From a bacterium (lineage in GTDB: Bacteria > Actinomycetota > Acidimicrobiia > Acidimicrobiales > Ilumatobacteraceae), in the NCBI GenBank assembly GCA_013205145.1, contig JABMMV010000047.1:1-49009 (forward strand): a stretch of 49,009 bases of DNA, in the 5' to 3' direction. The translations under genes and the position numbers were made by a program. The notes under the pieces were generated by a model, which was given only the letters and a program-made list of their open reading frames with translations, was not told where the DNA came from and ran no database searches. This document shows, piece by piece, positions 1 through 46,055 of this stretch (position 1 is its first letter; the number at the start of each line of letters is the position of its first letter).

Positions 1-2070
1 GAGGTAGTCAGTGAAGCTCGGATTTTTTACAATTCCATTTTGAACAATAATTTCTTCCATAACCGCTAGTCCAAGACCCTGCGCAATGCCGCCTTCAATT
101 TGTCCGAGTAATGCAAGTGGGTTGAGCGAACGCCCTACATCTTGAGCGGTAGCAATTTGTACTACCTTCACTAATCCGAGTTCAATATCAACATCAACAA
201 CTGCCCGGTGAGCAACAAATGCGAAGGCGACGTGACAATTCCCTTGACCATTCTCATCAAGCTCCTCAGTCTTGCGGTGCTGATGCAGGAAGGTCTGAGT
301 GATCTTCACTCCCTTGCTTGCCTCACTCACGCTGATGCGTAGCGGCCCCATGGTGTCGACGATGTCGGTATCTTCGATGATTAATTGCAGTGGGTCTAGC
401 CCGTGCATATGAGCAACATGTTCAAAGAGTCGTTCCCGTACAAGCCGGCACGCTCCGTCGACGGCGCCACCGCTCATCCATGTTTGACGCGAAGCCGAAG
501 TTGAACCAGCGGAACCGATGTTTGTATCGATGCGGTCAAGAACCACTACGTCGACACCAAGGACGGTTCGTGCAATCTGTTGAGCGAGTACAACGAAACC
601 TTGCCCCACTTCTGCTGTCGCAAATTTAAGAGTGGCGACTCCGTCGGCAAGTGTGCAACGAGCCTCGGCGCTGTCGTCGAACCCTTCGCTGTACATCAAG
701 TTCTTAATGGAAACGCCCCAACCAATACCGCGTTTGATGTTGTGAAGTTCTGATGTACGGCCCGAACCCCCGGGGAATTCCATAGTTTCCGTGCTCTCGG
801 ACAATGGAGCGGGGAGGGGAAGTGCATCGGTTTCACGAATGCAACGAGCAACAGGCGCAACGCTTTCCACTGGTTGACCAGTGATAAGGGTGTCTCCCTT
901 TTCCATTGCGTTGAGAAGGCGCACTTCTACAGGCGACTTACCAACTGCTTTGGCAATTTTATCCATTTGACCTTCATGGGCAAAACATGCCTGTACAACA
1001 CCGAAGCCGCGCATTGCGCCGCATGGGGGGTTGTTGGTTCGCACCGCGTATCCGTCAAAAACGGCATTAGCACACTTGTATGGACCTTGAATGTGTGTGA
1101 CGCCATTGATGAGAACAGCTGATGATGTGGAAGCGTATGCGCCGCCATCGAGCTTCATTGTTCCTTCAATTTTTACAATGCGACCTTCATTGGTGACATG
1201 GTGCTTCAGTGAAATGACGCCCGGGTGACGGTGCACATGACCGAAGAAGCTCTCTTCACGCGTGTACTGCATTTTCACTGGCCGCCCCGTGCGTAAAGCT
1301 AAGAGGCATGTATGAACCTGGAGGCTGATGTCTTCGCGTGCACCAAAGGCTCCGCCTACGCCGCCAAGTTGCAGACGCACTTTTTCTTTAGGCATGGCGA
1401 GGCAATCGGCAATTTGTTTCTGATCTTCGTGCAACCACTGCGTTGCCACAACTAACTCGATGCCTGACCCGTCGGAGTCGGGGTAGGCAAGTGCCGCTTC
1501 AAGACCGAGGAAAGCCTGATCTTGCATTCCGATCTCATATTCACCTTCAACCACAATGTCGCCTGTGGCGTTGGCATCGCCGTGGAGAATGTGTTGATGT
1601 CTAAATACATTGCCATCTGGGTGGATACTTGGAGTTTTTGGGTTGAGTGCATCTTCAATAGATGTGAGTGGTTTCAAAACTTCGTAGTGAACGATGATTG
1701 CGTCTAATGCACGGCGACATGTTTCAGGGTGATCTGCGGCAACGGCTGCGATGGGTTCTCCCATATAACGCACGAATTCTGAAGCGAATACTGGTTGATC
1801 GGAAGCAATGAGGCCGTACGTGAGTTTTCCGGGCACATCACTAGCTAAGAGGACTGTCTCTACGCCGTCAATTTTTATCGCCTCGGAAATATCTATGGAA
1901 ATGATGCGGGCATATGGGTGTGGTGAACGCAAAGTGGCACCCCACAACATGTTGTCTGCTGTGTAGTCAGATGAAAAGGAGAAGGTTCCTTGCGTTTTCG
2001 CTATGCCGTCGGGTCGCAGTGCTGAAACGCCGAGTACTTCTCGCTGCTTGCTCGTTGTACGTGTACTCAC
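1..2070 (-). CDS. Xanthine dehydrogenase/aldehyde oxidase family molybdopterin-binding large subunit (3' end outside window)
   Basis: Absent from the ORF track because it runs off the window. Manual minus-strand translation from GTG 2070 (GTGA overlap with the upstream stop at 2067-2069) stays open to position 1, about 690 codons. It reads VSTRTTSKQREVLGVSALRPDG...QLGGVGGAFGARED (about 1331-1366)...GAMRGFGVVQA (about 1000-1020)...GGIAQGLGLAVMEEI...FTDYL. These are typical Mo-hydroxylase large-subunit motifs. Confidence 0.85.
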   Translation of the reverse strand, partial: MSTRTTSKQREVLGVSALRPDGIAKTQGTFSFSSDYTADNMLWGATLRSPHPYARIISIDISEAIKIDGVETVLLASDVPGKLTYGLIASDQPVFASEFVRYMGEPIAAVAADHPETCRRALDAIIVHYEVLKPLTSIEDALNPKTPSIHPDGNVFRHQHILHGDANATGDIVVEGEYEIGMQDQAFLGLEAALAYPDSDGSGIELVVATQWLHEDQKQIADCLAMPKEKVRLQLGGVGGAFGAREDISLQVHTCLLALRTGRPVKMQYTREESFFGHVHRHPGVISLKHHVTNEGRIVKIEGTMKLDGGAYASTSSAVLINGVTHIQGPYKCANAVFDGYAVRTNNPPCGAMRGFGVVQACFAHEGQMDKIAKAVGKSPVEVRLLNAMEKGDTLITGQPVESVAPVARCIRETDALPLPAPLSESTETMEFPGGSGRTSELHNIKRGIGWGVSIKNLMYSEGFDDSAEARCTLADGVATLKFATAEVGQGFVVLAQQIARTVLGVDVVVLDRIDTNIGSAGSTSASRQTWMSGGAVDGACRLVRERLFEHVAHMHGLDPLQLIIEDTDIVDTMGPLRISVSEASKGVKITQTFLHQHRKTEELDENGQGNCHVAFAFVAHRAVVDVDIELGLVKVVQIATAQDVGRSLNPLALLGQIEGGIAQGLGLAVMEEIIVQNGIVKNPSFTDYL

Positions 2071-2558
2071 GAGATGCTCTTTTCTCTTTGAGAAATAACG
2101 AGTTGTACCGCAGAAAAAATACGACCGTATCCGGTGCACCTACAGATATTCCCCGACAATGCTTCTTTCACTTCAATTTCCGTTGGAGATGAGTTGGTCT
2201 CTAAGAGGTGGTGCACTGCAACAATGAGGCCGGGCGTGCAGAAGCCGCATTGCACGGCACCTTCTGTAACAAATGCTTGTTGTATGTCGTTAGGGCTTTC
2301 GGCGGGGGCTAAGCCTTCAACGGTAATGATGTCGGTATCAATGGCACTTGCAGCCATCACTAAGCACGAACACACGGCATCGTTGTTGATGAGGACAGTG
2401 CAACTTCCGCATTCGCCCTGTTCACAGGCACCCTTGGAGCCCATGAAGCCGAGTCTCTCGCGCAAGACGTACAGCAGGCTCTCACCAATCCATGCGTCTT
2501 TGACGTGTTGTTGCGTTCCGTTAACACGTAGCGAATACATTTCTGAAGATGAACTCAC
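2067..2558 (-). CDS. [2Fe-2S]-binding small subunit of a molybdenum hydroxylase (CoxS/XdhC-iron-sulfur type)
   Basis: 163 aa. Plant-ferredoxin-like cluster motif CEQGECGSCTV and second cluster motif QCGFCTPG...CRCTGY. GTG start overlaps the upstream stop (GTGA at 2555-2558). Confidence 0.9.
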   Translation of the reverse strand: MSSSSEMYSLRVNGTQQHVKDAWIGESLLYVLRERLGFMGSKGACEQGECGSCTVLINNDAVCSCLVMAASAIDTDIITVEGLAPAESPNDIQQAFVTEGAVQCGFCTPGLIVAVHHLLETNSSPTEIEVKEALSGNICRCTGYGRIFSAVQLVISQREKSIS

Positions 2559-3397
2559 TTCATTGCTCGTTTCAATAGTCGTTGGGCAAGTACGCCAACG
2601 GCGTGTTTGCGATATTCGGCAGTTGATCTGTGGTCTGTTATGGGAAGTGCTTCTGATGCAGCTAAGCGACCAAATTCTTCAATGACCTTGGTGGTCAAGG
2701 CAGTACTTGTAGAAAGATCTGCGTTTTCTGTCAGCCACTTTTCTGCTGTGCGACACCGGATGATTGTTGGACCTACTGCACCGAGAGCGAGAGAAATATG
2801 GCTCTTGTCGGTGTTGTGAATTAAGCAAGCACTAGCAATAGAGATCACCATGGCGTTGCGCACACCTACTTTTGCATAGCCCTGAAAACCATTGATTTTG
2901 GGTATGTGGATTGCAGTAATGATTTCATTTGAAACCCGCGCATTGCGTTTGACGCCAAGCATGAAGTCGTGAATGCTCAGCATGCGAATGCCTTTGACGC
3001 TCGACAGTTCAATTTGTGCATCGAGAGCACTGAGCACAGGCAGTGTGTCGCCTGCAGGGGAGCAGGTTCCTAAGTTTCCGCCAATTGTTCCGGTGGCTCG
3101 AATTTGAGGTGAACCCACCGTGCGTGAAGCCTCGCTTAACGCCCCTGAAACATGTGAGAACGAACCATTTTCAAATTGTTTGTAAGGAATTGCTGACCCA
3201 AGGCGATATCCGGCGCTGAGAGTTTCAAACACTTGTAGTTCTTGCACATGGCGCAGTGAAATGATGTCGGTTGGCTCGAAGTGGCGAAAGTTAATTTCCA
3301 CCATGGTGTCTGTTCCGCCGGCAAGGAGACGAGCTGTGGGGTGTTCATCCAGTACTTGTAAAGCCTCTGTAAGCGACCTTGGTGAAAAAATGGTCAT
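2555..3397 (-). CDS. FAD-binding medium subunit of a molybdenum hydroxylase (CoxM/YgfM-like)
   Basis: FAD_binding_5-type sequence ([15 protein letters not shown]), CO-dehydrogenase-flavoprotein-like C-terminus. I chose ATG 3397 because it forms an ATGA overlap with the LLM stop at 3394-3396. The track start at 3409 is a TTG 4 codons upstream. Confidence 0.85.
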
Positions 3398-4398
3398 GGG
3401 ACTTCCCAACCCTCGAATGCGTCAATCATCGCCTTCACATCTCCGAGTGGATACAGAATTGGGGATGTGCAGCCATTGTCGATGTAATGCTTCACCTTAT
3501 TACGAGCATCATCCGGGGTTCCACTAGCCGTGAGCATTTCCACAATTTCATCGGGCACGAGTTTTGAGGCTTTTACAACTTGTTCGTGCGTTGCTGGCCA
3601 AGTGAGAACTTCACCAACCTTGTCGAGCAAGCTTTGCGGTACTCCAGAAGCCTTCATGATGTGGGGCTGTTGACCCAAGTACTGGGTCACCATTAACCGC
3701 GCCATGTCTAAAGCGGTTTGGCGATCTTCATGAACACTGCAGACCACCAGTTGTGGGCGGTCTATATCGTTCAGAGTGCGTCCAGCCTTGGCTGCGCCAT
3801 TTCCGAGAGCCTCCATTGCTTGCTTGTTGTAATCGGGAGACACGAGGTAATTCAATACAACTCCATCGCCAATTTCGCCGGTGAGCTCCATCATTTGCAT
3901 ACCGGTGGCACCGATGTAAATGGGTACATTTTTTGCACGGCGCTCTTGGTAGACGTAATCCAGTTCTACTCCGTCTAGTTGTACAAACTCCCCGTTGAAT
4001 GTGACTGTTTCATTGTTGAGAAGCGCCCTGACGGTAGTGACAATTTCGCGCATTGCTTTTAATGGTTTGTGTCGACTGATGCCGACCTTGGCTGCAAGGG
4101 GGTCCCACCATGCTCCGATGCCCAATATGACTCTTCCCGGAGCGAGGTCGTCCAAGGTGGAAAATGTTGCTGCAAGACGAGCAGGGTTGCGACTCCAACA
4201 ATCGACTACTCCGGAGCCTACTTTGATGCGACTCGTCACTGAGGCAAATGCGGCCATCGGAACAGTAGCTTCGCGAACGAGACGGCTTTCGGCTTGCCAC
4301 ACAGCATCGAAACCTTTTGACTCTGCGTATTGAGCAAATTCCATTCCTTCGCGGATGTGGTGCGCATCTTGCAGATAAAGAGCCATGGGTATTTTCAT
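3394..4398 (-). CDS. Luciferase-like monooxygenase (LLM) family oxidoreductase, F420- or flavin-dependent (Mer-like)
   Basis: 334 aa. TIM-barrel LLM pattern ([12 protein letters not shown]..., [23 protein letters not shown]), resembling LLM class F420-dependent oxidoreductases. The cofactor cannot be decided by eye. Confidence 0.75.
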
Positions 4399-4420
4399 AG
4401 TTTTTCTTTCGTTGTTATAG

Positions 4421-5500
4421 CTATTCGGACATTGCTAAAGCGTGGTGCAAGCGTTGAGATTGTTCTTCGGCCTTGCGACGAACTTCTCCAAGATCAACTT
4501 TCGTGAGGCTTCCTTCAGAGAGCACATATTCGTTATTAATGCTGACATCTGTGACGTGCAACGAAGTGGTGTAGGCAATATGCCAGGAGCTATCCATGTG
4601 AGGGTAATTCCACGTGACAACATCATTTTGGGTTTCTGGCACTAGTTGCGAGCCATTGAAAAGCCAGCCCCAAGCAAGGTCGGGTGAGAAAGAGATGTCG
4701 TTGGCACGACCTGCAACAAACGCAAGTTGGAACTCGGACATCATGTTGCTGTCGATACCGTCTGAACCGAGTGCGATGCGGTTTTTCCACTGTGCTGGGC
4801 GAGCGTAACCAACTGCGTTGTTCATGTTGGAGCGTGGGTTATGAACAATTGTTCCGGCAATCGGTTCACGTAAATGCACCCCATGAACGATGAGCCAATT
4901 GTCTTTGGCGTATTTTTGCAAACGACTTTCAGCACCACGGTCGTCTGGCCCTTCTGCGACGTGAATGTGCACGCCGGTCTGAAACCGTTCAGATAGTTGA
5001 GAAGCAGTTTCGAGAGTTTCATCGGTGCAGGTGAAGGCTGCATGTACACCCACCATTGCAGGCTTACCCGTTGCGAGATAACGCTCTGTCTCGGCAAAAC
5101 CTAGGCGTGCGCCACGTGTGATGGGGGACGACGCCTTGACCTCTTGCAACCTCCCGTCATCATTCCATCTGTCGGTTACCCCGTAACACGGAATAACGCG
5201 AATACCAATGTCGGTACAAGCAGCATGGATGACGTCTAACGACCCCTCAATGCAGTTTGGAGATTCATGATGGTCGATGATTGCAGTGGTTCCTGATAAC
5301 AGGGCTTCTGCAGCGCCTAAAGCAGCCGACCAATAGATCATGTAGTGATCGAGAGCAGCGTCTAATTTCCACCATATATTTTCCAATACAGAAAGGAAAT
5401 TGTGGGGCGCAATTTTTGGTGCAGGCATACCGCGAGCTAGAGAGCTGTACAGGTGATGGTGCGCACACACAAGTCCTGGTGTGGTGTTCGCACTAGTCAT
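4421..5500 (-). CDS. SsnA-like amidohydrolase (metal-dependent hydrolase superfamily), lacking the N-terminal beta-sandwich segment
   Basis: HxH metal motif right at the N-terminus ([18 protein letters not shown]). SsnA-like signatures [12 protein letters not shown] and [13 protein letters not shown], plus GSDG. ATG 5500 sits inside ATGACTAG, overlapping the upstream stop. The longer track ORF (to 5650) overlaps the upstream gene and is not protein-like. Confidence 0.75.
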
Positions 5501-8123
5501 CGTCACGAGCCTTTGGCCGCATCGGCAATTCGTTGCGCCATATTCCGTCAACATTGCGCATTGCTTCTGCCACGGCACCAGCGGTTGGTACGAGGCCAAT
5601 TTCTCCGACACCTTTAATTCCATAAGGTGAATTAGGTTGCGGTGATTCAACCAATGTCACTTCTATGGGCGGAACATCTTTCGGACGCAAAATGCCAAGC
5701 GAACGTAATGTTGTGTTTGTTGGAAACGCAGTCTCAGGGTCGCTGGGGAATTGCTCGGACAGCGCGTATCCAAGGCCCATGTGAACGCTACCTTCAATTT
5801 GTCCTTCGCACAGCATGGGGTTCACTGCACGGCCTACGTCGTGAGCAGCAATGACACGCTCAATTGCCCCGGTGGTGCGGTCCATCACAACTACTTGTGC
5901 GGCGTATCCAAAAGTGGAGTGAATAATAGGGTTCTCCACTCCGGGTTCGCCCAACTTCGTTGTCCAGTCCACCCGGTACTCGCCAAGGTGGTCAACATCT
6001 ACAGCGCAATTGGCAACTCGTGCGGCTTCACAGGCAGCTTTCACAGCGCCGGCGCCCATCAGAGTGCCGCGCGAACCCGTGGTTTGTCCCTGGCCGAGTT
6101 CTCGCGTGGTGTCGACAATTACCTTGATGCGTAGCGGATCGATACCGAGTTCTTCAACTGCAACTTGTAGCGCAACGGTATGAATGCCTTGACCCATTTC
6201 TGTCCAACCGTGACGCACCTCAACGGTGCCGTCTGAACAAAAACGAACAACAGCTTTCGTTATTTCTTTGAAACCATTGCCGAGTCCAGAATTCTTCAAA
6301 CCCAAGCCAAGTCCGACAGCCTTGCCGTCGTGAATTGCTGCCTCGTACGCATCGCGCACTTCATCGAGACAAAGTTCTGCACCGAGGCACCCGTCGTCCA
6401 TGATTTGACCAGGACCCCACACCATTCCGGGCTTGATGACGTTTCTTTTCCGAATTTCCCAACCAGAGATGCCTATTTTTACGGCTAATCGATCGAGAAT
6501 TCCTTCCATGGCAAATTGCGCTTGATTCGCTCCGAAGCCGCGAAAGGCTCCACAAACAGGGTTGTTGGTGCGCGCAGCTACTGCCTCAACATCAATATTG
6601 GGAACGAAGTAGGGGCCACTGGCATGGCCTGCCATGCGTTCAAGTACCTTCATGCCAACGCTGGCATAGGCACCGCTGTCACCCAATGCTCGTACGCGAA
6701 GAGCAATAAGTTTCCCATTCTCGTCGCAGCCTGCCTCGTAGTCCATGTTGATGGGGTGACGCTTGGCGTGCATGCGAAAACTTTCTTCGCGGCTCAAAGT
6801 GCATTTCACGGGCGCATTAAGCAGCCATGCAGCCAAAGCAGCGTGAGCTTGGTTACTCATATCTTCTTTGCCACCAAACGCCCCACCGTTAGACACCAGT
6901 TCTACGGTGACGTTTTCATGAGCGATATTCAAGACACGAGCGATGTCGTTTCTGTCGTCCCAGACGCCTTGACCACCGGAGTACACGTGTAGCTTGCGAT
7001 TCTCTCCAGCGAGGCTGGGAACGGCAAGCGTGCTTTCAGGTTCGAGAAATGCGTGTTCTATACGTTGAGTAATGAAGGTCTCACGTACAACGTATGGTGC
7101 ATTTTTGAGCGATTGTTCGGTGTCGCCGCGGTGGTAAGTGCTCGTGCTCAAGATGTTGTTATTGGTTTTCCATACCGCAATTTCATTTGACGCTATAGCT
7201 ACAGCCGGATCTGTGATGGGTTGCATCACGTCATATTCCACATCAAGAAGTTCTGCTGCTATGCGAGCCTCTTCGCGTGTGTCAGCAACAATAATTGCTA
7301 ATACATCACCGGCATAGGAAGTGAGCCCGCCCACGGGAATCATGACGGGCCAGTCTTTATAAATAATGCCAACGTATGTTTCGCCGGGAATGTCACTTGC
7401 GGTAAATACTGCACGAACCCCAGAAGATGCAAGCGTTCGTTCGGTGTCGATATTTAAAACTTTTGCGCGGGCATGAGCAGTGAGATGCAACGCTGCATGC
7501 AGCAACCCGGGAACGCGAATGTCGTCTACATAACCGCGGTCTCCGAGAGCGAGCGATTCTCCCTCATACTTTGGCGCGTTACTGCCAACACCGCCAGATA
7601 TCAGAGGGTCTGGAACAGTGCCTTTGGCAACGCTTTCAATAGCATCGAGTACCTTGACGTATCCGGTGCATCGACAGAGGTGCGCACCCAGATGACGAGC
7701 CATATCTTCTCGTTTGAGGCCAGCACCCTTTTTATCTACCTGTGCTTTAGCCCGCACCACAATGCCGGGAATACAAAAACCACACTGCAATCCACCGCAT
7801 GCTGTGAATGCATCGGCATAAACTTTTCTCTCAGCATCGTCGATGCCTTCAAGGGTGACGATATTTGCATTGCGGACTTTCTCTACAGATTGTTGGCAAC
7901 TTACTATTGCTTTGCCGTCAATGAGCACGGTGCAACATCCGCATTGCCCAGAAGGGGAGCAGCCATCTTTTGCTGAGGTGACATTCAATTCTTCACGTAG
8001 TGCCGACAACAGATGCGGGTGGCGGGAACTGATTGTTACCTGAACGCCATTAACGGTGAGGGGCACACGGGAAGAGGAGTTCCAGTAGTTGGCCTCTGAG
8101 TGAGTGGATGGTGAAGATGTCAT
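5493..8123 (-). CDS. Fused [2Fe-2S] + molybdopterin-binding hydroxylase without FAD domain (XdhD / aldehyde oxidoreductase-like)
   Basis: N-terminal CSPSGQCGCCTV and QCGFCIPG...CRCTGY clusters, then Mo-pterin domains (EHAFLEPES, GGAFGGKED, FRGFGANQ, CEGQIEGS). ATG 8123 is preferred over the TTG at 8153 because AAGGGG lies 5 nt upstream. Confidence 0.85.
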   Translation of the reverse strand: MTSSPSTHSEANYWNSSSRVPLTVNGVQVTISSRHPHLLSALREELNVTSAKDGCSPSGQCGCCTVLIDGKAIVSCQQSVEKVRNANIVTLEGIDDAERKVYADAFTACGGLQCGFCIPGIVVRAKAQVDKKGAGLKREDMARHLGAHLCRCTGYVKVLDAIESVAKGTVPDPLISGGVGSNAPKYEGESLALGDRGYVDDIRVPGLLHAALHLTAHARAKVLNIDTERTLASSGVRAVFTASDIPGETYVGIIYKDWPVMIPVGGLTSYAGDVLAIIVADTREEARIAAELLDVEYDVMQPITDPAVAIASNEIAVWKTNNNILSTSTYHRGDTEQSLKNAPYVVRETFITQRIEHAFLEPESTLAVPSLAGENRKLHVYSGGQGVWDDRNDIARVLNIAHENVTVELVSNGGAFGGKEDMSNQAHAALAAWLLNAPVKCTLSREESFRMHAKRHPINMDYEAGCDENGKLIALRVRALGDSGAYASVGMKVLERMAGHASGPYFVPNIDVEAVAARTNNPVCGAFRGFGANQAQFAMEGILDRLAVKIGISGWEIRKRNVIKPGMVWGPGQIMDDGCLGAELCLDEVRDAYEAAIHDGKAVGLGLGLKNSGLGNGFKEITKAVVRFCSDGTVEVRHGWTEMGQGIHTVALQVAVEELGIDPLRIKVIVDTTRELGQGQTTGSRGTLMGAGAVKAACEAARVANCAVDVDHLGEYRVDWTTKLGEPGVENPIIHSTFGYAAQVVVMDRTTGAIERVIAAHDVGRAVNPMLCEGQIEGSVHMGLGYALSEQFPSDPETAFPTNTTLRSLGILRPKDVPPIEVTLVESPQPNSPYGIKGVGEIGLVPTAGAVAEAMRNVDGIWRNELPMRPKARDDD

Positions 8124-8193
8124 GCTTGCCCCTTGATCTTTACATTTTGTCAAAGGATGAGAGAAAGCGGTAGTTCATTTCGTTTCGGGAGCG

Positions 8194-9120
8194 TTAATCC
8201 TCGAAAATGACCCCTTTTTGGGCGGTTATTGACCCATAAACGTCGGGGCGACGGTATTTGCCGAAATTGAAGAGGGTCTCTTTGTATTTGCTGCACCAAT
8301 CGAGGTCACAGCGGGCCATCACCAACTCATCGTCGGTGGTGTAGGCCTGCGCCACAATTTGACCCGAAGGAGCAACAATACAGGTTTGTCCAAGGGAGTC
8401 GACGCCCTCTTCGGTACCGCCTTTGGCAACACCAACAACCCATGTACCGTTTTGGTACGCGCCGGATTGCATGACGAGTGCGTTGTGGAATCCTTGCAAA
8501 ATATCTTGGCTTGGGTCGGGTACGTAATGGATGGGCGTGTTGTAACCACACAGAATCATTTCAACACCCTTGAGACCCATGACTCTGTATGACTCTGGCC
8601 AACGTCGGTCGTTGCAGATCATCATTCCCATTCGTGCACCAAAAGCTTTCCATACACCAAAGCCTTCTGGCCCAGGTTCAAAGTAGTACCGCTCGGCATG
8701 TTGAAAGGGTCGGTCGGGTTCGTTGTGTTCGTGACCTGGTATGTGTACCTTGTGATATTTCGCTACAACGGATCCGTCTTTCTCCACCAATATTTGCGTA
8801 TTGAATCGGTGACCATCGGGAGTCAATTCTGCATAACCAAGGGAAAAACCAATAGAGAGTCGGCGTGCTTCATCGAAGAGTGGTTGTGTTTCTGGTGACG
8901 GCATTGATGTCTCGTACCAATGGTCGGCCTCGGTGATGTCGTCAACAAACCATCGAGGGAAAAAAGTGGTGAGAGCTAATTCGGGGAAGACCACAAGATC
9001 GCAACCATGCGTGCTTGCTTGGCGCAAGAGTGCAATGAGGCGATCAACGACCGAGGCCCGGGTGTCTTCTTTTTGTATGGGTCCAAGCTGTGCAGCTCCG
9101 ACCGTAATAATTCTGCTCAT
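8194..9120 (-). CDS. Carbon-nitrogen hydrolase family, N-carbamoyl-D-amino-acid hydrolase-like
   Basis: 308 aa. The N-terminus and length closely follow D-carbamoylases (VGAAQLGPI..., VVFPELALTTFFPRWF, YHKVHIPG, MMICNDRRWPE). The Glu-Lys-Cys catalytic triad is present. ATGA overlap with the upstream gene. Confidence 0.8.
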   Translation of the reverse strand: MSRIITVGAAQLGPIQKEDTRASVVDRLIALLRQASTHGCDLVVFPELALTTFFPRWFVDDITEADHWYETSMPSPETQPLFDEARRLSIGFSLGYAELTPDGHRFNTQILVEKDGSVVAKYHKVHIPGHEHNEPDRPFQHAERYYFEPGPEGFGVWKAFGARMGMMICNDRRWPESYRVMGLKGVEMILCGYNTPIHYVPDPSQDILQGFHNALVMQSGAYQNGTWVVGVAKGGTEEGVDSLGQTCIVAPSGQIVAQAYTTDDELVMARCDLDWCSKYKETLFNFGKYRRPDVYGSITAQKGVIFED

Positions 9121-10358
9121 GAGAAAACAGTATCGGCTAATTCCAGCATCACATGCAATAAAACGTTTGCCCCAGTGACAAGATCTTCTTCATCGGTATG
9201 TTCCGCTGGGTTGTGCGAAATGCCCTTCTCACTAGGCACGAAAATCATTGCCGACGGACACACTCGGGCCAGCATTTGTGCGTCGTGACCAGCACCTGAA
9301 GGGAGGCGGCGCACCCGTTTACCCGTAGACAAACAGTGACGCTCCACAATTTCTATGACTCGCTCATCGAATTGCACGGGTTCGAAACGCGACAAGGTTC
9401 TTTTCGATATAGAGACACCCTCATCTTGCTCTAATTGGAAACAAAAGGTATCGAGCAAGCGTTCTGCATCGACAAGGGTGTCTTCGTCGGTATTTCGCAT
9501 ATCGAGCGTCAGAGTTGCACGAGAGGGAATAACGTTGACGAGATTGGGGTGTAAGTCAATCTTTCCCACTGTGCACACCTGGTCGCCTCCGAACCGTTCC
9601 GCAATTTCTCGCAAATACACAGTGAGCATGGCTGCAACATAGGCGGGGTCGTGACGCAAGTTCATTGGTGTTGTACCAGCGTGATTGCTTTGTCCTTGAA
9701 TAGTTACTTCCTGCCAGGAAATACCTTGAACGCCGGTGACCGCTCCGAGAGTGAACCCTTCTGCCTCTAACACCGGACCCTGTTCTATATGAATTTCTAC
9801 AAACGCATGTGGTGCTTCACCTGGGCAAGGAGCACTTCCTGCGTAGCCAATATTGAGTAACTCGTCGCCAACGCGTTGTCCGTCAATTCCGACAATATCG
9901 AGCGCCTCTTCAAGATTGAGACCGCCTGCATAAACAAGAGAACCGAGCATGTCGGGGGAAAACCGTGCGCCTTCTTCATCTGTAAAAAATGCGACAGAAA
10001 GTGGCCGCGACGGGGTGAGCCCAGACTCCTGACACGTCTGAATTACTTCTAAGCCTGCAATGACGCCGTAGTTGCCGTCGTATACACCACCGGTGCGAAC
10101 GGTATCAATATGTGAACCAGTGAGGACGGGTTTGCCTGTTCCGACATTCCACGTTCCTAAAACATTGCCAATTGCGTCAGTTGTTACCTCGAGATTGAGT
10201 TCTTTCATCCAAGACACCACAAGATCTCGTCCATCGCGGTCTTCGGTGGTCAGTGCAATGCGACAACAGCCGCCGTCGCCTGTGCTGCCGATGTCGGCAA
10301 GAGCTGTGATGCGTTGCATCATACGATTGCCATTGATAGCTAAAACTGCAGGCTTCAT
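9117..10358 (-). CDS. M20 Zn-dependent amidohydrolase (allantoate amidohydrolase / N-carbamoyl-L-amino-acid hydrolase / beta-ureidopropionase family)
   Basis: 413 aa. INGNRMMQRITALADIG...GGCCRIALTTEDRDGRDL...GSHIDTV...FTDEEGARF...HIEQG is the AmaB/AllC-type pattern. First gene of the operon. Confidence 0.8.
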   Translation of the reverse strand: MKPAVLAINGNRMMQRITALADIGSTGDGGCCRIALTTEDRDGRDLVVSWMKELNLEVTTDAIGNVLGTWNVGTGKPVLTGSHIDTVRTGGVYDGNYGVIAGLEVIQTCQESGLTPSRPLSVAFFTDEEGARFSPDMLGSLVYAGGLNLEEALDIVGIDGQRVGDELLNIGYAGSAPCPGEAPHAFVEIHIEQGPVLEAEGFTLGAVTGVQGISWQEVTIQGQSNHAGTTPMNLRHDPAYVAAMLTVYLREIAERFGGDQVCTVGKIDLHPNLVNVIPSRATLTLDMRNTDEDTLVDAERLLDTFCFQLEQDEGVSISKRTLSRFEPVQFDERVIEIVERHCLSTGKRVRRLPSGAGHDAQMLARVCPSAMIFVPSEKGISHNPAEHTDEEDLVTGANVLLHVMLELADTVFS

Positions 10359-10415
10359 TTCAATAGTGTTTCACATTTCCTAGCTCGGCGGGGCTATGAG
10401 AATAGACCTTTCTAC

Positions 10416-10421
10416 TAGAGT
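10416..10421 (+). promoter_or_regulatory. -10 box TAGAGT, 6 nt before GTG 10428 (leaderless start of the TauE-like gene)
   Basis: TANNNT hexamer with a 6-nt spacer (ttttct) to the start codon. The same geometry recurs at 12 other operon heads in this window. Confidence 0.5.
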
Positions 10422-10427
10422 TTTTCT

Positions 10428-11153
10428 GTGATGAATGACCTGTTTGCAGTAATCGTCATTATCTGTGTCGCAGCAATTCTGCAGTCAATATCCGGCTTCG
10501 GTTTTTCGTTACTGGCTATGCCTCTCCTGTCAGTTGTTGTGGATATTCGCGAAGCAGTTGTCATTGCAACTATTTGCGGGCTTTTCTCCAATGTTGTGCA
10601 TGTCACAAAAGACCATCAAATGGTCGAACGTTCAATAGCTAGACGAATTTCATTTTCGGCGCTTCTCGGTATGCCATTGGGTGTTCTTCTTCTGTCCGTT
10701 TTTAGTGCCATGCAGATGCGGGTGTGTATTAGTGTGGTCACAATTGTTTTAGTTGTATTAATGATGTTTAAATTCTCAATAAAAAAAGAGAACACAAAAG
10801 TTGACGTAGTGTTGGGGGTAATATCGGGTGTTTTGGCAACTTCTGTTTCCACTAACGGTCCACCGCTCATATTTCTTTTGCAGTCGAAGCGCCTCGACTC
10901 GTCGCGTTTCAGAGCCACATTGGCCTATGTGTTCACTGTCTCAGGGTGTGCGTCGTTCGCCGTTTTGATGGCTGCTGGCAAAGGCAGTGTTGCTGCATTT
11001 CAATTCGCACTACTTTCAATTCCTTCGATGTACCTAGGAACATTGCTAGGACGAAGAGCGAGAAGTGCTGTTACTCAGGAAGCATTTCAACGTTTGACCT
11101 ACGTCTTGCTCTTAACGACAGCTGGAAGCACAGCGCTCGCAGCTTTTTTCTAG
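10428..11153 (+). CDS. TauE/SafE (TSUP) family sulfite-exporter-like membrane protein
   Basis: 241 aa, multi-TM, with the family-typical N-terminus ...ILQSISGFGFSLLAMPLL. The stop shares the palindrome CTAG (11150-11153) with the convergent gene. Confidence 0.8.
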   Translation: MMNDLFAVIVIICVAAILQSISGFGFSLLAMPLLSVVVDIREAVVIATICGLFSNVVHVTKDHQMVERSIARRISFSALLGMPLGVLLLSVFSAMQMRVCISVVTIVLVVLMMFKFSIKKENTKVDVVLGVISGVLATSVSTNGPPLIFLLQSKRLDSSRFRATLAYVFTVSGCASFAVLMAAGKGSVAAFQFALLSIPSMYLGTLLGRRARSAVTQEAFQRLTYVLLLTTAGSTALAAFF

Positions 11154-11875
11154 TTCTCTACGCCACCGAACCATTGCATCCAGGCCTCTTTATTTCTGGT
11201 GCGGTACACGTAGTTTGCTTGCCGCACATTTTCCATTGGCGAGCTGGAAGGAGCTGAGTACTGGTGACCAGGGTAAACGACAGTTTGGTCGGGCAGTTGT
11301 GCTAACCGTTGCAAACTGTCGTACATGTCTTCAGGGTTGCTGCCTGGTAGGTCGGTGCGGCCACAACCGTCGAGAAAGAGTGTGTCGCCAGAAACAAGAC
11401 ACCCATTGGCGAGAAAGCACTGGCTGCCCGGTGTGTGGCCTGGGGTATGGATGAAAGTGATTTCCATGTTCCCAACCGCAAGAGTGTCTCCGCCTTTGTG
11501 CTCAACAAGATCTGACCGCGTTACTCCCGTTGTCTTCATCACGAGTTCCGACTCAAGAGCATTTACATGTATGGGGAGAGAGGTGCTCTCAAGGATCTTT
11601 GCGATACCTTCGATACGCAGACCCATGATGGACCCGCCAATATGGTCGGCGTGATAATGGGTGGCAAGAACACCTGAAACCTTCATGCCGTCGTTATGAG
11701 CCGTGGCGATGATGTCGTCTACGGCATACGCGGGGTCAATGACAACACATTCCCCAGTGTCTTTGTCGCCGAGCAAATAGACAAAGTTGACCATTTGCTC
11801 TGCGGCTTTGTTGCCGACGGCAAAGTCTCTACCCGAAAGCAACTGGCGAAAATAGATATTGCTGGAATTCTGCAT
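11150..11875 (-). CDS. MBL-fold hydrolase, persulfide dioxygenase (ETHE1)-like / glyoxalase II-like
   Basis: THYHADHIGG, HTPGHTPGS, SGDTLFLDGCGRTDL...MYDSL...VYPGHQY. Start set at MQNSSNIYF (ATG 11875). The longer track ORF (to 12043) is Arg/Pro-rich junk overlapping the divergent gene. Confidence 0.7.
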   Translation of the reverse strand: MQNSSNIYFRQLLSGRDFAVGNKAAEQMVNFVYLLGDKDTGECVVIDPAYAVDDIIATAHNDGMKVSGVLATHYHADHIGGSIMGLRIEGIAKILESTSLPIHVNALESELVMKTTGVTRSDLVEHKGGDTLAVGNMEITFIHTPGHTPGSQCFLANGCLVSGDTLFLDGCGRTDLPGSNPEDMYDSLQRLAQLPDQTVVYPGHQYSAPSSSPMENVRQANYVYRTRNKEAWMQWFGGVEN

Positions 11876-11882
11876 GTTTGCC

Positions 11883-11888
11883 ACACTA
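11883..11888 (-). promoter_or_regulatory. -10 box TAGTGT, 7 nt before ATG 11875
   Basis: TANNNT hexamer on the minus strand with a 7-nt spacer (ggcaaac) to the start codon. No SD sequence. Confidence 0.4.
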
Positions 11889-11907
11889 TGTCGTAATCTG
11901 CTTCTAT

Positions 11908-13389
11908 ATGAACTTCGATGTTTCTGGCATGGAAAAAGTGGACTCACTTGAGGCTGGCCAGCGCATTTTGTGTGGAAATCAGTGGGTGCGCGTTTCTCAG
12001 GAACTGGCCGATGCATTCCAACCGGGCGATTCCCTGATTGCACTGCAGGAGATGGGAGAACTGTTACGAATGACCGCGGCCGATTTGAAGATTGCAGATG
12101 CTGCTGTTACCGAAGCAGCAGAAGCCTTCACGGCAATGGCGCATGTGGGTGATGAGCAAATCTCTCGCTTCTATGAAAAATTCGCCGAATTACTGGCCGA
12201 CAACGACCTCTTTCGCTATGTGCAGGTTGCCAACGATGTAGACGTTGAATCGGCTTTAAAAAAAGGTCGGTCGGTAACACGGTTGCGAATTGACGAAAAG
12301 ATGCGTAGCGACATGGTTGAAGGTCTGCTGATGTGGGCACAATTAGACCTCACCCGAGATCTCGTCATGAGCAACATCGAACACGACGGATGGAATGTTG
12401 AAGTAGTGCGTGCGCCACTTGGCGTAGTTGGTTTCGTATTCGAAGGTCGACCCAATGTATTTGCCGATGCAACGGGTGTTTTGCGTACTGGCAATACTGT
12501 GGTTTTCCGTATCGGTAGCGACGCATTAGGCACCGCACGTGCCATCTCAAAACACATGCTGGTTCCGGCCCTCATTGCGTCGGGGTTACCAGAGAAATCT
12601 GTAGTGCTCATCGACAGTCCAACCCATGGTGCTGGCTGGGCCCTATTTGCTCATTCTGGGCTGTCACTTGCAATTGCTCGCGGTTCTGGCAAAGCAGTTG
12701 CCCAACTTGGTGCAGTTGCTCGCCAATCTGGCACGGCGGTGAGTTTGCACGGAACAGGTGGTGCCTGGATGATTATTGGTCAATCGGCAGACGCTGATGA
12801 CATCGCATCTTTCGTTGTGAACTCTTTAGATCGCAAAGTGTGCAACACACTGAATGTTGTTGCGATGACTAGCGATGCTCCTGTGCACAATATTCAAGCT
12901 GTGTTGAAGGGTATCTCTCACGCGGCAATGCATCGCAATACCCAAGCCATTGTTCATGTACCTCACGCTTCAAAAAAATTTCTTGATAGTTGCGATATTC
13001 CGGTCAATGTCAATATTGAGTGGAGCAACGATATTGATTATGCGCTGGAATATGAATGGGAAGATCAGCCAGAGTTGGCGCTTTCATTTGAGTCGAGCTT
13101 GCATGATTGCGTAGTATCTTTCAACGCCCACAGCCCGCAATTTATTGTTTCGTGTCTTTCTCAAGATCAAAGAGATCATGACCTCATCTGGCGCGAATGT
13201 AATGCACCATTTGTTGGCAACGGATTCACGCGTTGGGTAGACGGTCAATATGCCTTGAACAGACCCGAACTTGGTCTTTCCAATTGGCAAGGTGGCCGGC
13301 TTTTGGCCCGTGGGGGAGTTCTCTCTGGTGACGGTGTGCATACAGTGCGATTGCGGGTACAACAAACCGACAGCGATGTGCGGCGCTAA
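11908..13389 (+). CDS. Glutamate-5-semialdehyde dehydrogenase (ProA)-like aldehyde dehydrogenase with extra N-terminal segment
   Basis: VFEGRPNVFADATGVLRTGNTVVFRIGSDA, LAIARGSGKAV and the catalytic-Cys motif RKVCNTLNVV parallel ProA. The start is uncertain (TTG 11878, ATG 11908, ATG 11929). There is no adjacent proB. Confidence 0.65.
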   Translation: MNFDVSGMEKVDSLEAGQRILCGNQWVRVSQELADAFQPGDSLIALQEMGELLRMTAADLKIADAAVTEAAEAFTAMAHVGDEQISRFYEKFAELLADNDLFRYVQVANDVDVESALKKGRSVTRLRIDEKMRSDMVEGLLMWAQLDLTRDLVMSNIEHDGWNVEVVRAPLGVVGFVFEGRPNVFADATGVLRTGNTVVFRIGSDALGTARAISKHMLVPALIASGLPEKSVVLIDSPTHGAGWALFAHSGLSLAIARGSGKAVAQLGAVARQSGTAVSLHGTGGAWMIIGQSADADDIASFVVNSLDRKVCNTLNVVAMTSDAPVHNIQAVLKGISHAAMHRNTQAIVHVPHASKKFLDSCDIPVNVNIEWSNDIDYALEYEWEDQPELALSFESSLHDCVVSFNAHSPQFIVSCLSQDQRDHDLIWRECNAPFVGNGFTRWVDGQYALNRPELGLSNWQGGRLLARGGVLSGDGVHTVRLRVQQTDSDVRR

Positions 13390-14110: not shown

Positions 14111-14950
14111 TCACTGCAGCTCTTGATTGTCGATGAGTCGCACCTGTGAACCCAATATTGCACCTAGTGCAACTAAGCGCTTGCTTGTATCTCGAGAGGG
14201 TTGCAACGAGTCCTGTTCTGCAACATCGAAGTAATCGAGTTGAAAGTGCACCATATTATTGAATTGTGCTGTTGCATCTGAGATGGCTTCACTGAGACTG
14301 TTAGTGCTGGAAAAAGAGCGGTTAAACATCTGGAGGATTTCAAAAAACTTGGGCGCTTCATTTCTCTCGCCATCAGTAAGTTGAGCATTGCGGCTTGAGA
14401 GCGCTAGTCCGTCGGCTTCTCGAACAGTCTCCATGCCGTGAATGTGAATTGGGAAATTAAGGTCTGCTACGAAACGCCTTATAATTGCGAGTTGCTGATA
14501 ATCCTTTTTGCCGAAAAAGGCAATGTTAGGTTGCACAAGGTTGAACAGCTTCACAACAACTGTTGCCATTCCGGCGAAGTGTCCGGGACGCGATGCGCCT
14601 TCGAATAGCGAACCGAGTGATCCGGGTGTGATGAAGGTGTCGAATCCTTCAGGGTAGATATCTGATATCTCAGGTAAATAGACGTAGTCAACATTGAATG
14701 TTCTGCAGGTGTCTAGGTCTTCTTCAACGGTGCGTGGATACTTTGCTAAATCTGACGCTGAGTTAAATTGCTTCGGGTTGATAAAGATTGATGCAATTGT
14801 TACATCTGATTTCTCGGTTGAAACTTTTAACAATTCAGCGTGACCCAAGTGCAAAGCGCCCATTGTGGGCACGAAGCCAATAGTTTTTGAACTAGCTAAG
14901 GTCTGTGCGCGTAGTAAACGCAGCTCTTCAATGCTCCGTAAAATGTGCAT
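14111..14950 (-). CDS. panC: Pantoate--beta-alanine ligase
   Basis: 279 aa. GFVPTMGALHLGHAELL, SIFINPKQF. Directly downstream of panB. Confidence 0.92.
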   Translation of the reverse strand: MHILRSIEELRLLRAQTLASSKTIGFVPTMGALHLGHAELLKVSTEKSDVTIASIFINPKQFNSASDLAKYPRTVEEDLDTCRTFNVDYVYLPEISDIYPEGFDTFITPGSLGSLFEGASRPGHFAGMATVVVKLFNLVQPNIAFFGKKDYQQLAIIRRFVADLNFPIHIHGMETVREADGLALSSRNAQLTDGERNEAPKFFEILQMFNRSFSSTNSLSEAISDATAQFNNMVHFQLDYFDVAEQDSLQPSRDTSKRLVALGAILGSQVRLIDNQELQ

Positions 14951-14953
14951 TGT

Positions 14954-15775
14954 TTAGTGGAAAGAATGTTTGTCATCGGGCCATGAACCATTGCGTACGT
15001 CTTGAGCAAACTCTTGGAAAGCATTCGTAGCTAACGATCTCATGTCGACGTATTTCTTAGTGAATGTAAGTTCGCGCTCGGAGAGTCCGAGAATATCGTG
15101 CATCACCAAAACTTGCCCATCGCAGAAAGATCCAGCGCCGATACCAATAGTTGGTATGGAGATTTTTGATGTGATCTCTTGGGCCAATTCTGTAGGTATG
15201 CCTTCAAGAACAACCGCAAAGGCTCCGGCCTGTTCAACTGCATGTGCATCGTCAAGAAGCCTTTGTCGACCGCCTGGCTCTACGCCATCGACGCGACCCT
15301 GTACTTTGTGCCCGCCCATGCGATGAACACTCTGTGGCGTGAGTCCAATATGGCCCATCACCGGAATATCGGCTCGTGTAATTGCTTCAATAGTCGTAGC
15401 AACGGTCGTTCCACCTTCGAGTTTGACGCATTGAGCACCAGCCTTCATCAGAACCACAGAGCTCTCAATGCCTTGGCCGGCACTCACCTGGTAGCTGCCA
15501 AAGGGCAGATCACCAACAACCAATGCTTTTGGCTGGGCACGACGCACAAGCGCCGTATGGTACGCCATTTCACTCAATGTCACAGGAATGGTGTTGTGGT
15601 GCCCCTGCATGACCGTGGCAACTGAGTCGCCGACGAGAATGGCATCAACGCCCGCGTCATCAATAATTCTTGCGAACGTTGAGTCATAGGCTGTGACCAT
15701 TACGATTTTTTCCCCAGCAGACTTCATTACTTGAAGCATGGGAACTGTGACAGGTTTGCGTGTAGGTGTTGTCAT
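14954..15775 (-). CDS. panB: 3-methyl-2-oxobutanoate hydroxymethyltransferase
   Basis: 273 aa. MVTAYD...ILVGDS...DLPFGSY...VKLEGG...GHIGLTPQ. SD GAGGAAAG upstream. Confidence 0.92.
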   Translation of the reverse strand: MTTPTRKPVTVPMLQVMKSAGEKIVMVTAYDSTFARIIDDAGVDAILVGDSVATVMQGHHNTIPVTLSEMAYHTALVRRAQPKALVVGDLPFGSYQVSAGQGIESSVVLMKAGAQCVKLEGGTTVATTIEAITRADIPVMGHIGLTPQSVHRMGGHKVQGRVDGVEPGGRQRLLDDAHAVEQAGAFAVVLEGIPTELAQEITSKISIPTIGIGAGSFCDGQVLVMHDILGLSERELTFTKKYVDMRSLATNAFQEFAQDVRNGSWPDDKHSFH

Positions 15776-15804: not shown

Positions 15805-16461
15805 CTACTGCCAGAGTGGCTTTTCAACTCTCCAAGGAACAGGATTTCCCCACGTGTCTTGGAACGTGACTTCATGTGGCTGTTGACGTTGCGCAACACC
15901 CCACTTGCCAGTGGGGTAGCCGAGAGTGATCATGGCCATGGGAACCCACACCCCGGTTTCAGGAGCGCCAAGTAGTTCAAGTACCTGCTGCGTGTGGTTC
16001 TTGAAAAGCAAGGTGGTCAAAGAGGTCCCAATTCCTTCTGCGGTTGCAGCTAGTTGGAGGCTCCATAAGGCGGGGTAGATAGAACTTTCGCCATTTGGCT
16101 TTCCCCAGGCAAAAAGCAAAGTGGGAACGATGTGCAAGTTGTCGGCTAGCCATTCCGCAGATGCATTCGTCTTTTTGGCCTGAATAACTTCCGGATCAGT
16201 TGGGTCACCGTCTGTGATGAGATCCATGACAGCTTTGTACTTGGTTGCATTTAAGTCGGTGAGACCTTCGCGGTACATCTTTTGTAGCGCGATGCGTTTG
16301 GCAGGGTCTGAGACAAGTAGAAACCGCCAACTTTGTGTATTGCCACCAGATGGCGCACGTACCGCAGCGTCAAGGAGCTTCGCGAGAACTGTGTCGGGTA
16401 TTGGATCTGGCTTCACTCGACGCATTGCTCGGGTGGTGTACAAAGCTTGAGAAAGTTCCAT
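15805..16461 (-). CDS. Nitroreductase family protein
   Basis: 218 aa. TTRAMRRVKPDPIPDTVLAKLLDAAVRAPSGGNTQSWRFLLV is the canonical nitroreductase N-terminus. Confidence 0.8.
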   Translation of the reverse strand: MELSQALYTTRAMRRVKPDPIPDTVLAKLLDAAVRAPSGGNTQSWRFLLVSDPAKRIALQKMYREGLTDLNATKYKAVMDLITDGDPTDPEVIQAKKTNASAEWLADNLHIVPTLLFAWGKPNGESSIYPALWSLQLAATAEGIGTSLTTLLFKNHTQQVLELLGAPETGVWVPMAMITLGYPTGKWGVAQRQQPHEVTFQDTWGNPVPWRVEKPLWQ

Positions 16462-44674: not shown

Positions 44675-44680
44675 AGAGAA

Positions 44681-46054: not shown

Positions 46055-46055
46055 C

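Follow-up and report, generated by a model that had tools for sequence, protein, structure and literature searches.

Which compound is degraded by the eight genes at the start of contig JABMMV010000047.1, from an uncultured freshwater bacterium of the Ilumatobacteraceae (assembly GCA_013205145.1)? In the 49,009 nucleotides of this stretch, called the window throughout, positions 1-10358 are taken up by eight consecutive open reading frames (ORFs), all read on the minus strand. They code for an M20-type carbamoyl-amidohydrolase, an N-carbamoyl-D-amino-acid hydrolase (DCase), a FAD-less fusion of [2Fe-2S] and molybdenum cofactor (Moco) domains, a short homologue of SsnA, a luciferase-like monooxygenase (LLM) family oxidoreductase and the FAD-binding, iron-sulfur (FeS) and Moco subunits of a xanthine dehydrogenase (XDH). 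A first-pass annotation had noted the kinship to the E. coli locus that contains ssnA and xdhD, but had called that locus only partly resolved and the operon an undescribed pathway which could not be mapped onto any characterised one. The kinship holds, and the operon maps onto the pathway of the E. coli locus. The other two statements do not survive: two studies from 2025 have reconstituted the E. coli route, which is thus a characterised pathway with a known substrate, and relatives among the Acidimicrobiia hold genuine YgfK, HyuA, YgeX, YgeW and YqeA beside the same short SsnA. We consider it probable that the operon joins the oxidation of purines to urate with the reductive uric-acid pathway, also called the 2,8-dioxopurine or 'isoxanthine/yanthine' pathway, in a variant found in Acidimicrobiia.

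The reductive uric-acid pathway, described only in 2025, has been presented as characteristic of anaerobes in the gut and as dependent on selenium and on oxygen-sensitive Fe-S enzymes. The E. coli ygeW…ssnA-ygfM-xdhD cluster was reconstituted as this pathway by Li et al. (Life Metab 2025, PMC12507026 = bioRxiv 10.1101/2025.05.19.654654) and Liu et al. (bioRxiv 10.1101/2025.04.24.650524), from whose work the following outline is taken. Urate is converted to 2,8-dioxopurine by XdhD-YgfM or by the fused clostridial XdhAC, the 2,8-dioxopurine dehydrogenase ('DOPDH'), which works without pyridine nucleotide. The product is dearomatised by YgfK or by the PydA-like UacX. Ring opening by SsnA leads to 5-ureidomethyl-hydantoin or 5-ureido-dihydrouracil, and the product of HyuA is 2,3-diureidopropionate. 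The 2-ureido group is removed by YgeW/YqeA or UacY and the 3-ureido group by YgeY, and YgeX converts diaminopropionate to pyruvate and ammonia. The pathway also occurs in Clostridioides difficile, Clostridium sporogenes and Enterococcus faecalis. In Chloroflexota, an LLM (PF00296) is found beside SsnA in place of YgfK/UacX and has been proposed, bioinformatically, as an alternative 2,8-dioxopurine reductase of the LLM/F420 type.

The eight-gene arrangement is a real and selected unit, beyond chance, because both gene order and sequence identity are conserved across relatives. These were found via the short SsnA in a scan with one genome per species, which detected it in at least 591 species-level genomes; the best 80 were kept. 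Among these 80, nearly all are metagenome-assembled genomes (MAGs) from Acidimicrobiia or from unclassified Actinomycetota, with few labelled otherwise, and Ilumatobacteraceae, the freshwater 'acIV' group, Microthrixaceae, Ca. Poriferisodalis and others are represented. All eight genes are present in the order of the window in 20 species-level loci, while further loci are interrupted by contig ends, so that, for the neighbourhood check asked for by the first-pass annotation, at least 20 species-level genomes of Acidimicrobiia share the gene order. Every gap is at most 253 nt in 18 of the 20 loci. Amino-acid identity to the window proteins ranges from 51 to 98% across the eight-gene loci, with medians of 86% for the LLM, 76% for the DCase, 75% for the fusion, 74% for the Moco subunit, 69% for the FeS subunit, 67% for the M20 protein, 57% for the SsnA-like protein and 55% for the FAD subunit. 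Contigs with identical proteins are MAG or metagenome fragments of 2.9-4.4 kb, including one from GCA_037133935.1.

The eight ORFs and the coordinates of their seven junctions, as given by the first-pass annotation, were all re-read from the sequence and are correct (Table 1). Its gene identities also stand, as Pfam and NCBIfam profiles, run on the window ORFs, agree with it for all eight products. The same is true for the start of the SsnA-like gene at ATG 5500 (359 aa), since thousands of homologues span 352-375 aa. The longest ORF in this frame (409 aa, from TTG 5650) was rejected: it would run 158 nt into the fusion gene, and the homologues are all about 355 aa long. The frame is nevertheless open for another 150 nt upstream (5501-5650), within the 3′-terminal part of the fusion gene. 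A scan for promoters and terminators gave fewer matches than in shuffled controls and none within the operon gaps, and no RNA family was found in an Rfam scan of positions 1-12000. These scans are uninformative and have no bearing on co-transcription.

Is the short SsnA homologue a true SsnA? When compared by hhalign, it matches residues 54-440 of E. coli SsnA with a probability of 100% and 35% identity. It lacks the N-terminal ~50 residues and is ~80 aa shorter in total. The two proteins have in common the motifs HxHxYSxLxRG, WWRLDxALD, IDHHxSP, HNxRSNMNNxVGY and GTDGIGxDM. An AlphaFold (AF2) model with a predicted local distance difference test (pLDDT) score of 90.3 has the amidohydrolase fold, and the nearest folds belong to the amidine-hydrolysing deaminase/chlorohydrolase branch (isocytosine deaminase, 3hpa, TM0936, AtzA and TrzN).

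The genomic neighbourhood was counted for 83 loci that carry the short SsnA, with up to 10 kb of flank per locus. Immediately downstream of it, we found the LLM in 45 loci, a FAD subunit in 10, YgfK in 5 (L051, L059, L073, L076, L082) and YgeX in 3; in L056, YgfK is encoded nearby. With 883 and 875 bits, the YgfK proteins of L076 and L051 score above the cutoff of the curated Se_ygfK equivalog (835). LLM and YgfK occur together in none of 56 loci. HyuA is present in L059, L049 and L064, and YgeX is a neighbour of the short SsnA or of the LLM in L039, L047, L049, L056 and L057. YgeW and YqeA are encoded in L076, an E. coli-type XdhD in L059 and L076, and YqeB/YqeC in the YgfK-type relatives L051 and L059. 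For HyuA, YgeX and YqeC, one representative each was checked against NCBIfam, and all three pass (L059 HyuA for TIGR02033, L049 YgeX for NF006058, L051 YqeC for its curated cutoff), the others being assigned by tblastn identity to the E. coli proteins. In the Microthrixaceae locus L049, a single block comprises hyuA, the FAD, FeS and Moco subunits, M20, DCase, fusion, SsnA, LLM, ygeX and an 8-oxoguanine deaminase; L057 has a full set similar to this. 8-Oxoguanine deaminase produces urate. Its model is passed by two proteins encoded inside LLM-type clusters (L043:12416-13837 and L049:13307-14707), and a similar guaD-like ORF in L057 (8744-9898) is a candidate only. The window does not carry the 8-oxoguanine deaminase genes of its relatives. 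These gene-context patterns support the view that Acidimicrobiia use the short protein as their functional SsnA, that the LLM substitutes for YgfK, and that urate is the hub of the pathway.

For the LLM, the best NCBIfam and PDB matches are all F420-dependent members of the family (Mer, FGD, fHMAD). The match to Mer has an E value of 1.7e-53 and that to 1z69 of 9e-40, and no curated cutoff is reached. In a protein search with the LLM, the best 120 matches are all from Acidimicrobiia and 86-98% identical. It is the most conserved protein of the block, which suggests an unusually strong constraint or a recent spread. As the LLM and YgfK are alternatives for the place downstream of SsnA and are never found together, the context supports a non-orthologous replacement of YgfK by the LLM as 2,8-dioxopurine reductase, and the LLM is probably F420H2-dependent. 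Another LLM, only ~25% identical, is encoded directly upstream of the short SsnA and YgeX in the sponge-associated Ca. Poriferisodalis (L039:8914-9921, L047:8885-9895). This suggests that LLM enzymes have been recruited beside SsnA more than once. Some other proteins of the window hint at the use of a deazaflavin, without establishing it: two PNPOx-like proteins (22924-23451 and 28811-29263) have weak matches to F420-dependent PPOX families and a nitroreductase-fold protein (15805-16461) has weak matches to BluB and to the C-terminal part of FbiB, all below cutoff. F420 biosynthesis has been reported in other Acidimicrobiia, the Actinomarinales (PMC7771536), and we found nothing specific in the literature on F420 or purine catabolism in Ilumatobacteraceae or acIV.

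The fusion protein reaches 804.4 bits with TIGR03311 ('Se_dep_XDH'), over profile positions 3-842, and only 162 bits with TIGR03313, which represents the E. coli XdhD type. Over 97% of its length, it shares 39.5% identity with a protein of E. faecalis annotated as 'selenium-dependent xanthine dehydrogenase'. No other Mo enzyme is encoded in the plasmid-borne cluster of that protein, which reads ssnA-ygfK-hydA-dpaL-ygeY-ygeW-arcC and also has selD, yqeB and yqeC. Because equivalents of XDH residues Glu802, Arg880 and Glu1261 (the purine-binding Glu/Arg and the catalytic Glu) are kept, the fusion is likely to be a purine enzyme rather than an aldehyde oxidoreductase, while its overall architecture resembles that of D. 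gigas MOP. A TIGR03311-type fusion accompanies the LLM in 41 loci and YgfK in 4 (L051, L073, L082, L056). Most likely, the fusion acts as a urate 6-dehydroxylase, that is as a DOPDH functionally like XdhD, rather than as a hydroxylase. In the collected loci, L088 is the E. faecalis plasmid pCF3A-343-2 (NZ_CP142821.1, 93094-125628), a 139.5-kb plasmid from a pig isolate with a complete uricolytic cluster (ssnA, ygfK, hydA, dpaL, ygeY, ygeW, arcC, permease, xdh, mocA, sclA, selD, yedF, yqeC and yqeB).

The other Mo enzyme of the operon is, by its profile matches and motifs, a three-subunit PucD-type xanthine dehydrogenase. Its Moco subunit, truncated by the window edge, scores 721.7 bits with TIGR03196 (pucD), and the full-length orthologue from L005, which is 95% identical, passes this equivalog (804 against a cutoff of 783.65). 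The XDH motifs GGAFGARED (Glu) and AMRGFG (Arg) are present in the window gene, and the catalytic-Glu motif GVGEPP was read in the L005 orthologue. The best NCBIfam match is XdhB for the FAD subunit (176 bits), whose gene overlaps both neighbours at its start and stop, and XdhC and PucE for the FeS subunit, in each case below cutoff. A MobA-like nucleotidyltransferase (39523-40140, plus strand), which stays under the MobA and MocA cutoffs, is the sole candidate for a Moco-nucleotide maturation gene in the window, where an XdhC-type chaperone was not seen.

Both carbamoylases can be assigned to families with some precision. The CN-hydrolase is, according to its alignment, a genuine D-carbamoylase: it matches the solved DCase 8i99 over its full length (residues 1-304, E value 2.5e-118, about 60% identity), and the motifs of the Glu/Lys/Cys triad are intact (FPEL, KxH, ICNDRRW). 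By analogy, we propose that it cleaves the 2-ureido group and stands in for YgeW/YqeA or UacY. The DCase fits the stereochemistry, since the known pathway uses a D-hydantoinase and the D-aminoacylase-like UacY. The M20 protein passes TIGR01879 ('hydantase', 388 bits against a cutoff of 204) and also NF006771 ('allantoate amidohydrolase', 428.7 against 399). Its nearest structures are of the L-carbamoylase/beta-ureidopropionase types (3n5f, 294 bits; 8c46, 269 bits), with 218 bits for E. coli AllC. It is proposed, again by analogy, to cleave the 3-ureido (beta-ureido) group in place of YgeY.

With catalytic roles inferred from family assignments and gene context, the following order of reactions can be suggested. 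The three-subunit XDH would oxidise hypoxanthine or xanthine to urate, as expected from its family membership. The fusion would then remove the 6-oxo group of urate to yield 2,8-dioxopurine, a role based on its homology to the Firmicute uricolytic Mo enzyme and on its context. As positional replacement of the Fe-S flavoprotein YgfK, the LLM would dearomatise 2,8-dioxopurine to a dihydro form, probably with F420H2. The short SsnA, by homology, would hydrolyse the C4 amidine bond, giving 5-ureidomethyl-hydantoin or 5-ureido-dihydrouracil. The second ring would be opened by an enzyme encoded outside the window, or in a different way, to produce 2,3-diureidopropionate; possibly, the short SsnA performs both C4 hydrolyses, which would explain the missing hydantoinase. 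The DCase would take the 2-ureido group off 2,3-diureidopropionate (analogy with UacY/YgeW), leaving 3-ureido-2-aminopropionate, from which the M20 protein would remove the 3-ureido group (analogy with YgeY) to form 2,3-diaminopropionate, with CO2 and NH3 released by the decarbamoylations. For the diaminopropionate ammonia-lyase step (YgeX), the gene would be located elsewhere in the genome or the step would be done differently. As a speculation, electrons from xanthine oxidation may be passed to the FAD-less dehydroxylase, the net reaction being an isomerisation of xanthine to 2,8-dioxopurine; this is conceivable because the operon has only a single FAD subunit and pyridine nucleotides play no part in the clostridial DOPDH reaction. 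The first-pass annotation had arrived at the general logic of Mo enzymes, reduction by the LLM, opening by SsnA and two decarbamoylations, which is retained. It had taken both Mo enzymes for hydroxylases, where for the fused one a dehydroxylase acting on urate is now most likely.

Several observations weigh against this reading. The pathway assignment as a whole relies on sequence and gene context. The short SsnA stays under both curated SsnA cutoffs, those of TIGR03314 and NF005540 (216 against 455.5 bits and 229 against 444). The fusion falls just below the TIGR03311 cutoff of 830.45 bits, it shares only 23% identity with E. coli XdhD, and the Glu606 loop of XdhD aligns poorly with it. HyuA and YgeX are absent from the 49-kb window and from ~5-10 kb around the Ilumatobacteraceae-type eight-gene blocks, which leaves two gaps in the pathway. 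A tblastn search of the 49 kb with E. coli YgfK, YgeW, YqeA, YqeB/C, HyuA, YgeX and YgeY gave no match with E<1e-5. This bears out the earlier statement that a YgfK-type reductase, carbamoyltransferase, carbamate kinase and selenium-cofactor genes are missing; for the latter, YqeB and YqeC had no match in the window and SelD was not searched specifically. No F420-biosynthesis gene was recognised in the 49-kb window. The known pathway comes from anaerobes, whereas the host appears to be aerobic, because CtaA and GlcDEF are encoded in the window. Finally, a six-gene block (M20, DCase, short SsnA, FAD, FeS, Moco) without fusion and LLM occupies the same syntenic site in 8 loci (Table 1). For the core, the fusion and the LLM may be dispensable; otherwise, both genes must have moved in this clade.

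The rival explanations together account for a minor, though not negligible, share of our expectation. The one that survives best, while still unlikely, builds on the six-gene loci: the core of XDH, short SsnA, DCase and M20 would degrade a purine or another heterocycle without any reduction, for example by hydrolytic opening of xanthine as in Clostridium cylindrosporum, or would act on another substrate, and the fusion and the LLM would be an optional add-on. The persistence of this core at the same site in a clade of eight loci speaks for it, as do the nearest folds of the short SsnA, which are amidine-hydrolysing deaminases that act on unreduced heterocycles. In addition, the sole LLM near any of these loci (L085) is 33% identical and a paralogue. 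The classical C. cylindrosporum route employs a xanthine amidohydrolase and then a ureido-imidazolecarboxylate amidohydrolase. To our knowledge, the genes of this route have not been assigned, and genome-guided proposals were all that the literature on them provided. However, the six-gene loci group together in a neighbour-joining tree of the SsnA proteins, as a single clade that lies within the eight-gene clade and has the group of the window as its sister. This fits a single event of loss or relocation. The joint loss or relocation of fusion and LLM is also consistent with one functional module. Moreover, the short SsnA is flanked across the class by YgfK, HyuA and YgeX, has the LLM as its direct neighbour in 45 of the 83 loci, and carries SsnA-specific motifs in common with E. 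coli SsnA. Two carbamoylases suit a diureido product, while there is only one ureido intermediate in the xanthine route.

An oxidative purine route is considerably less probable. Here, urate formed by the XDH would be turned to allantoin by a uricase encoded elsewhere, the amidohydrolase would resemble allantoinase, the M20 protein would be an allantoate amidohydrolase and the CN-hydrolase would act on ureidoglycine or ureidoglycolate. The B. subtilis PucD-type XDH feeds the allantoin route. The PucD-type XDH of the window, its apparently aerobic host and the passing of NF006771 by the M20 protein would all suit such a route, but among known structures, L-carbamoylases and beta-ureidopropionases come closer to the M20 protein than AllC or ureidoglycolate amidohydrolase do. 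The amidohydrolase, homologous to SsnA, belongs with the mononuclear deaminases and not with the cyclic-amidase allantoinases, the CN-hydrolase is a bona fide DCase, and fusion and LLM would be left without a role. Domains of uricase, 2-oxo-4-hydroxy-4-carboxy-5-ureidoimidazoline (OHCU) decarboxylase, allantoinase and ureidoglycine hydrolase were not found in window ORFs of at least 150 aa, nor flagged among the conserved neighbours of the block. The first-pass annotation had likewise seen no uricase, 5-hydroxyisourate (HIU) hydrolase or allantoinase, which is confirmed for uricase and allantoinase in ORFs of this size, while ORFs as short as HIU hydrolase lay outside the scan.

Least probable by a further step is a reductive pyrimidine/hydantoin route, with the LLM as F420-dependent analogue of dihydropyrimidine dehydrogenase, the amidohydrolase as dihydropyrimidinase analogue, DCase and M20 as beta-ureidopropionases and the Mo enzymes as co-located purine salvage: DCase and AmaB-type M20 proteins classically belong to hydantoin and dihydropyrimidine pathways, and a class-III aminotransferase and an aldehyde-dehydrogenase-like gene near the block in many relatives recall beta-alanine catabolism, but the amidohydrolase is outside the hydantoinase/dihydropyrimidinase type, related clusters hold real hydantoinases (TIGR02033) besides the short SsnA, both Mo enzymes show the active-site residues of purine enzymes and their genes are linked to the operon by translational coupling, and the 8-oxoguanine deaminase and diaminopropionate ammonia-lyase of related clusters point to purines.

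The reductive uric-acid reading thus returns to the comparison with known systems. In common with the clusters of E. coli, C. difficile, C. sporogenes and E. faecalis, the window has an SsnA homologue beside a putative dearomatising reductase and a FeS-Moco enzyme that lacks FAD and probably acts on purines, together with two predicted ureido-cleaving enzymes and a companion xanthine dehydrogenase. The fusion probably belongs to the type found in the E. faecalis cluster. In contrast to the E. coli and Firmicute clusters, the window has an LLM instead of YgfK/UacX, a nitrilase-fold DCase instead of YgeW plus YqeA or UacY, and an AmaB-type M20 protein instead of YgeY. Its SsnA is ~50 N-terminal residues shorter and under the family cutoffs, HyuA, YgeX, YqeB/C and MocA are not encoded in cis, and the XDH is joined into the same operon. 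The host is apparently an aerobic planktonic actinobacterium and not a gut anaerobe.

The Chloroflexota loci share with the window an LLM (PF00296) in place of YgfK/UacX beside SsnA. They belong to another phylum, and the publication on them mentions neither DCase nor AmaB-type replacements, the words 'carbamoylase' and 'nitrilase' being absent from it. That analysis used the SsnA family IPR017700, and the short Acidimicrobiia SsnA, far below the TIGR03314 cutoff, is probably outside its network. With the B. subtilis PucABCDE XDH, the window enzyme has in common a Moco orthologue which passes the pucD equivalog and separate FAD and FeS subunits. It differs in that its FAD subunit is nearer to XdhB than to PucC, in that the operon has no PucA/XdhC-type or PucB/MocA-type maturation gene, and in that what follows is not the allantoin route. 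The DCases of Agrobacterium and Nitratireductor are ~60% identical over a full-length alignment, with an intact catalytic triad. They are found with a D-hydantoinase, which is lacking in the window, where the DCase is part of a purine-catabolic operon. This location suggests 2,3-diureidopropionate as the natural substrate of this industrial enzyme family.

Replacement of YgfK by an LLM had already been proposed, bioinformatically, for Chloroflexota. New here are the enzyme set (three steps probably performed by unrelated enzymes, a trimmed SsnA and an XDH within the operon) and the host group, apparently aerobic planktonic Acidimicrobiia, for which the pathway has not been discussed.

Beyond the operon, the window contains ordinary housekeeping genes and aerobic markers (Table 1). 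The trio of TauE, MBL-fold hydrolase and ProA-like dehydrogenase and the panB/panC genes are syntenic with the block in six-gene and eight-gene genomes. A class-III aminotransferase is located between TauE and the M20 gene in 17 relatives and is missing from the window. A role in the pathway was weighed and rejected for TauE, the MBL-fold hydrolase, the ProA-like dehydrogenase, the class-III aminotransferase, a DEAD-box helicase and an MFS transporter: despite their synteny, these genes are divergent or encoded on the other strand, and none of them closes the HyuA/YgeX gap. On the other side, the block stops in relatives after the Moco gene and is followed by an ALO-type FAD oxidase in opposite orientation.

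Table 1. Genes and junctions of the operon, selected neighbouring genes and the six-gene loci of relatives. Positions refer to the window unless a locus is named.
Feature	Position	Strand	Details
M20 carbamoyl-amidohydrolase, AmaB / hydantoinase-carbamoylase family	9117..10358	-	413 aa; Pfam Peptidase_M20 + M20_dimer
N-carbamoyl-D-amino-acid hydrolase (DCase), CN-hydrolase fold	8194..9120	-	308 aa; Pfam CN_hydrolase
FAD-less [2Fe-2S] + Moco fusion	5493..8123	-	876 aa; Fer2_2 + Ald_Xan_dh_C + MoCoBD_1/2, FAD domain absent
Short SsnA homologue	4421..5500	-	359 aa; Amidohydro_1; best NCBIfam match SsnA
Luciferase-like (LLM) oxidoreductase, Mer-like	3394..4398	-	334 aa; Pfam Bac_luciferase
FAD-binding subunit of XDH, CoxM/XdhB type	2555..3397	-	280 aa; FAD_binding_5 + CO_deh_flav_C
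[2Fe-2S] subunit of XDH	2067..2558	-	163 aa; Pfam Fer2 + Fer2_2
Moco subunit, PucD-type XDH	1..2070	-	first 690 codons in window, 3′ end past edge
Junction M20/DCase	9117-9120		ATGA overlap
Junction DCase/fusion	8124-8193		70-nt gap; AAGGGG(N5)ATG, fusion start ATG at 8123
Junction fusion/SsnA	5493-5500		8-nt overlap ATGACTAG
Junction SsnA/LLM	4399-4420		22-nt gap
Junction LLM/FAD subunit	3394-3397		ATGA overlap
Junction FAD subunit/FeS subunit	2555-2558		GTGA overlap
Junction FeS subunit/Moco subunit	2067-2070		GTGA overlap
TauE	10428-11153	+	
MBL-fold hydrolase	11150-12043	-	
ProA-like dehydrogenase	11878-13389	+	
panB/panC	14111-15775		
CtaA	29253-30155		aerobic marker
GlcDEF	44537-48076		aerobic marker
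Six-gene loci L018, L019, L024, L028, L032, L034, L085, L086	e.g. L086:7778-14659		

The operon extends a newly described pathway and overturns nothing. We tentatively go one step further, with somewhat less than even confidence: the Mer-like LLM would be a new kind of reductase for 2,8-dioxopurine (isoxanthine), without oxygen-sensitive Fe-S centres and probably dependent on F420H2, an enzyme which, together with the trimmed SsnA, the DCase and the AmaB-type M20 protein, lets abundant aerobic freshwater Acidimicrobiia (acIV / Ilumatobacteraceae) mineralise purines reductively with no selenium-cofactor maturation genes in cis. The presence of the short SsnA in so many species-level genomes suggests that the same chemistry is widespread in planktonic Acidimicrobiia. 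If this is true, the LLM would represent a new enzyme class for purine dearomatisation, and the industrially used D-carbamoylases would have a plausible natural substrate. The operon would also supply oxygen-tolerant parts for engineered urate-degrading probiotics and, for the organisms themselves, would provide a route by which purine nitrogen is recycled in lakes.

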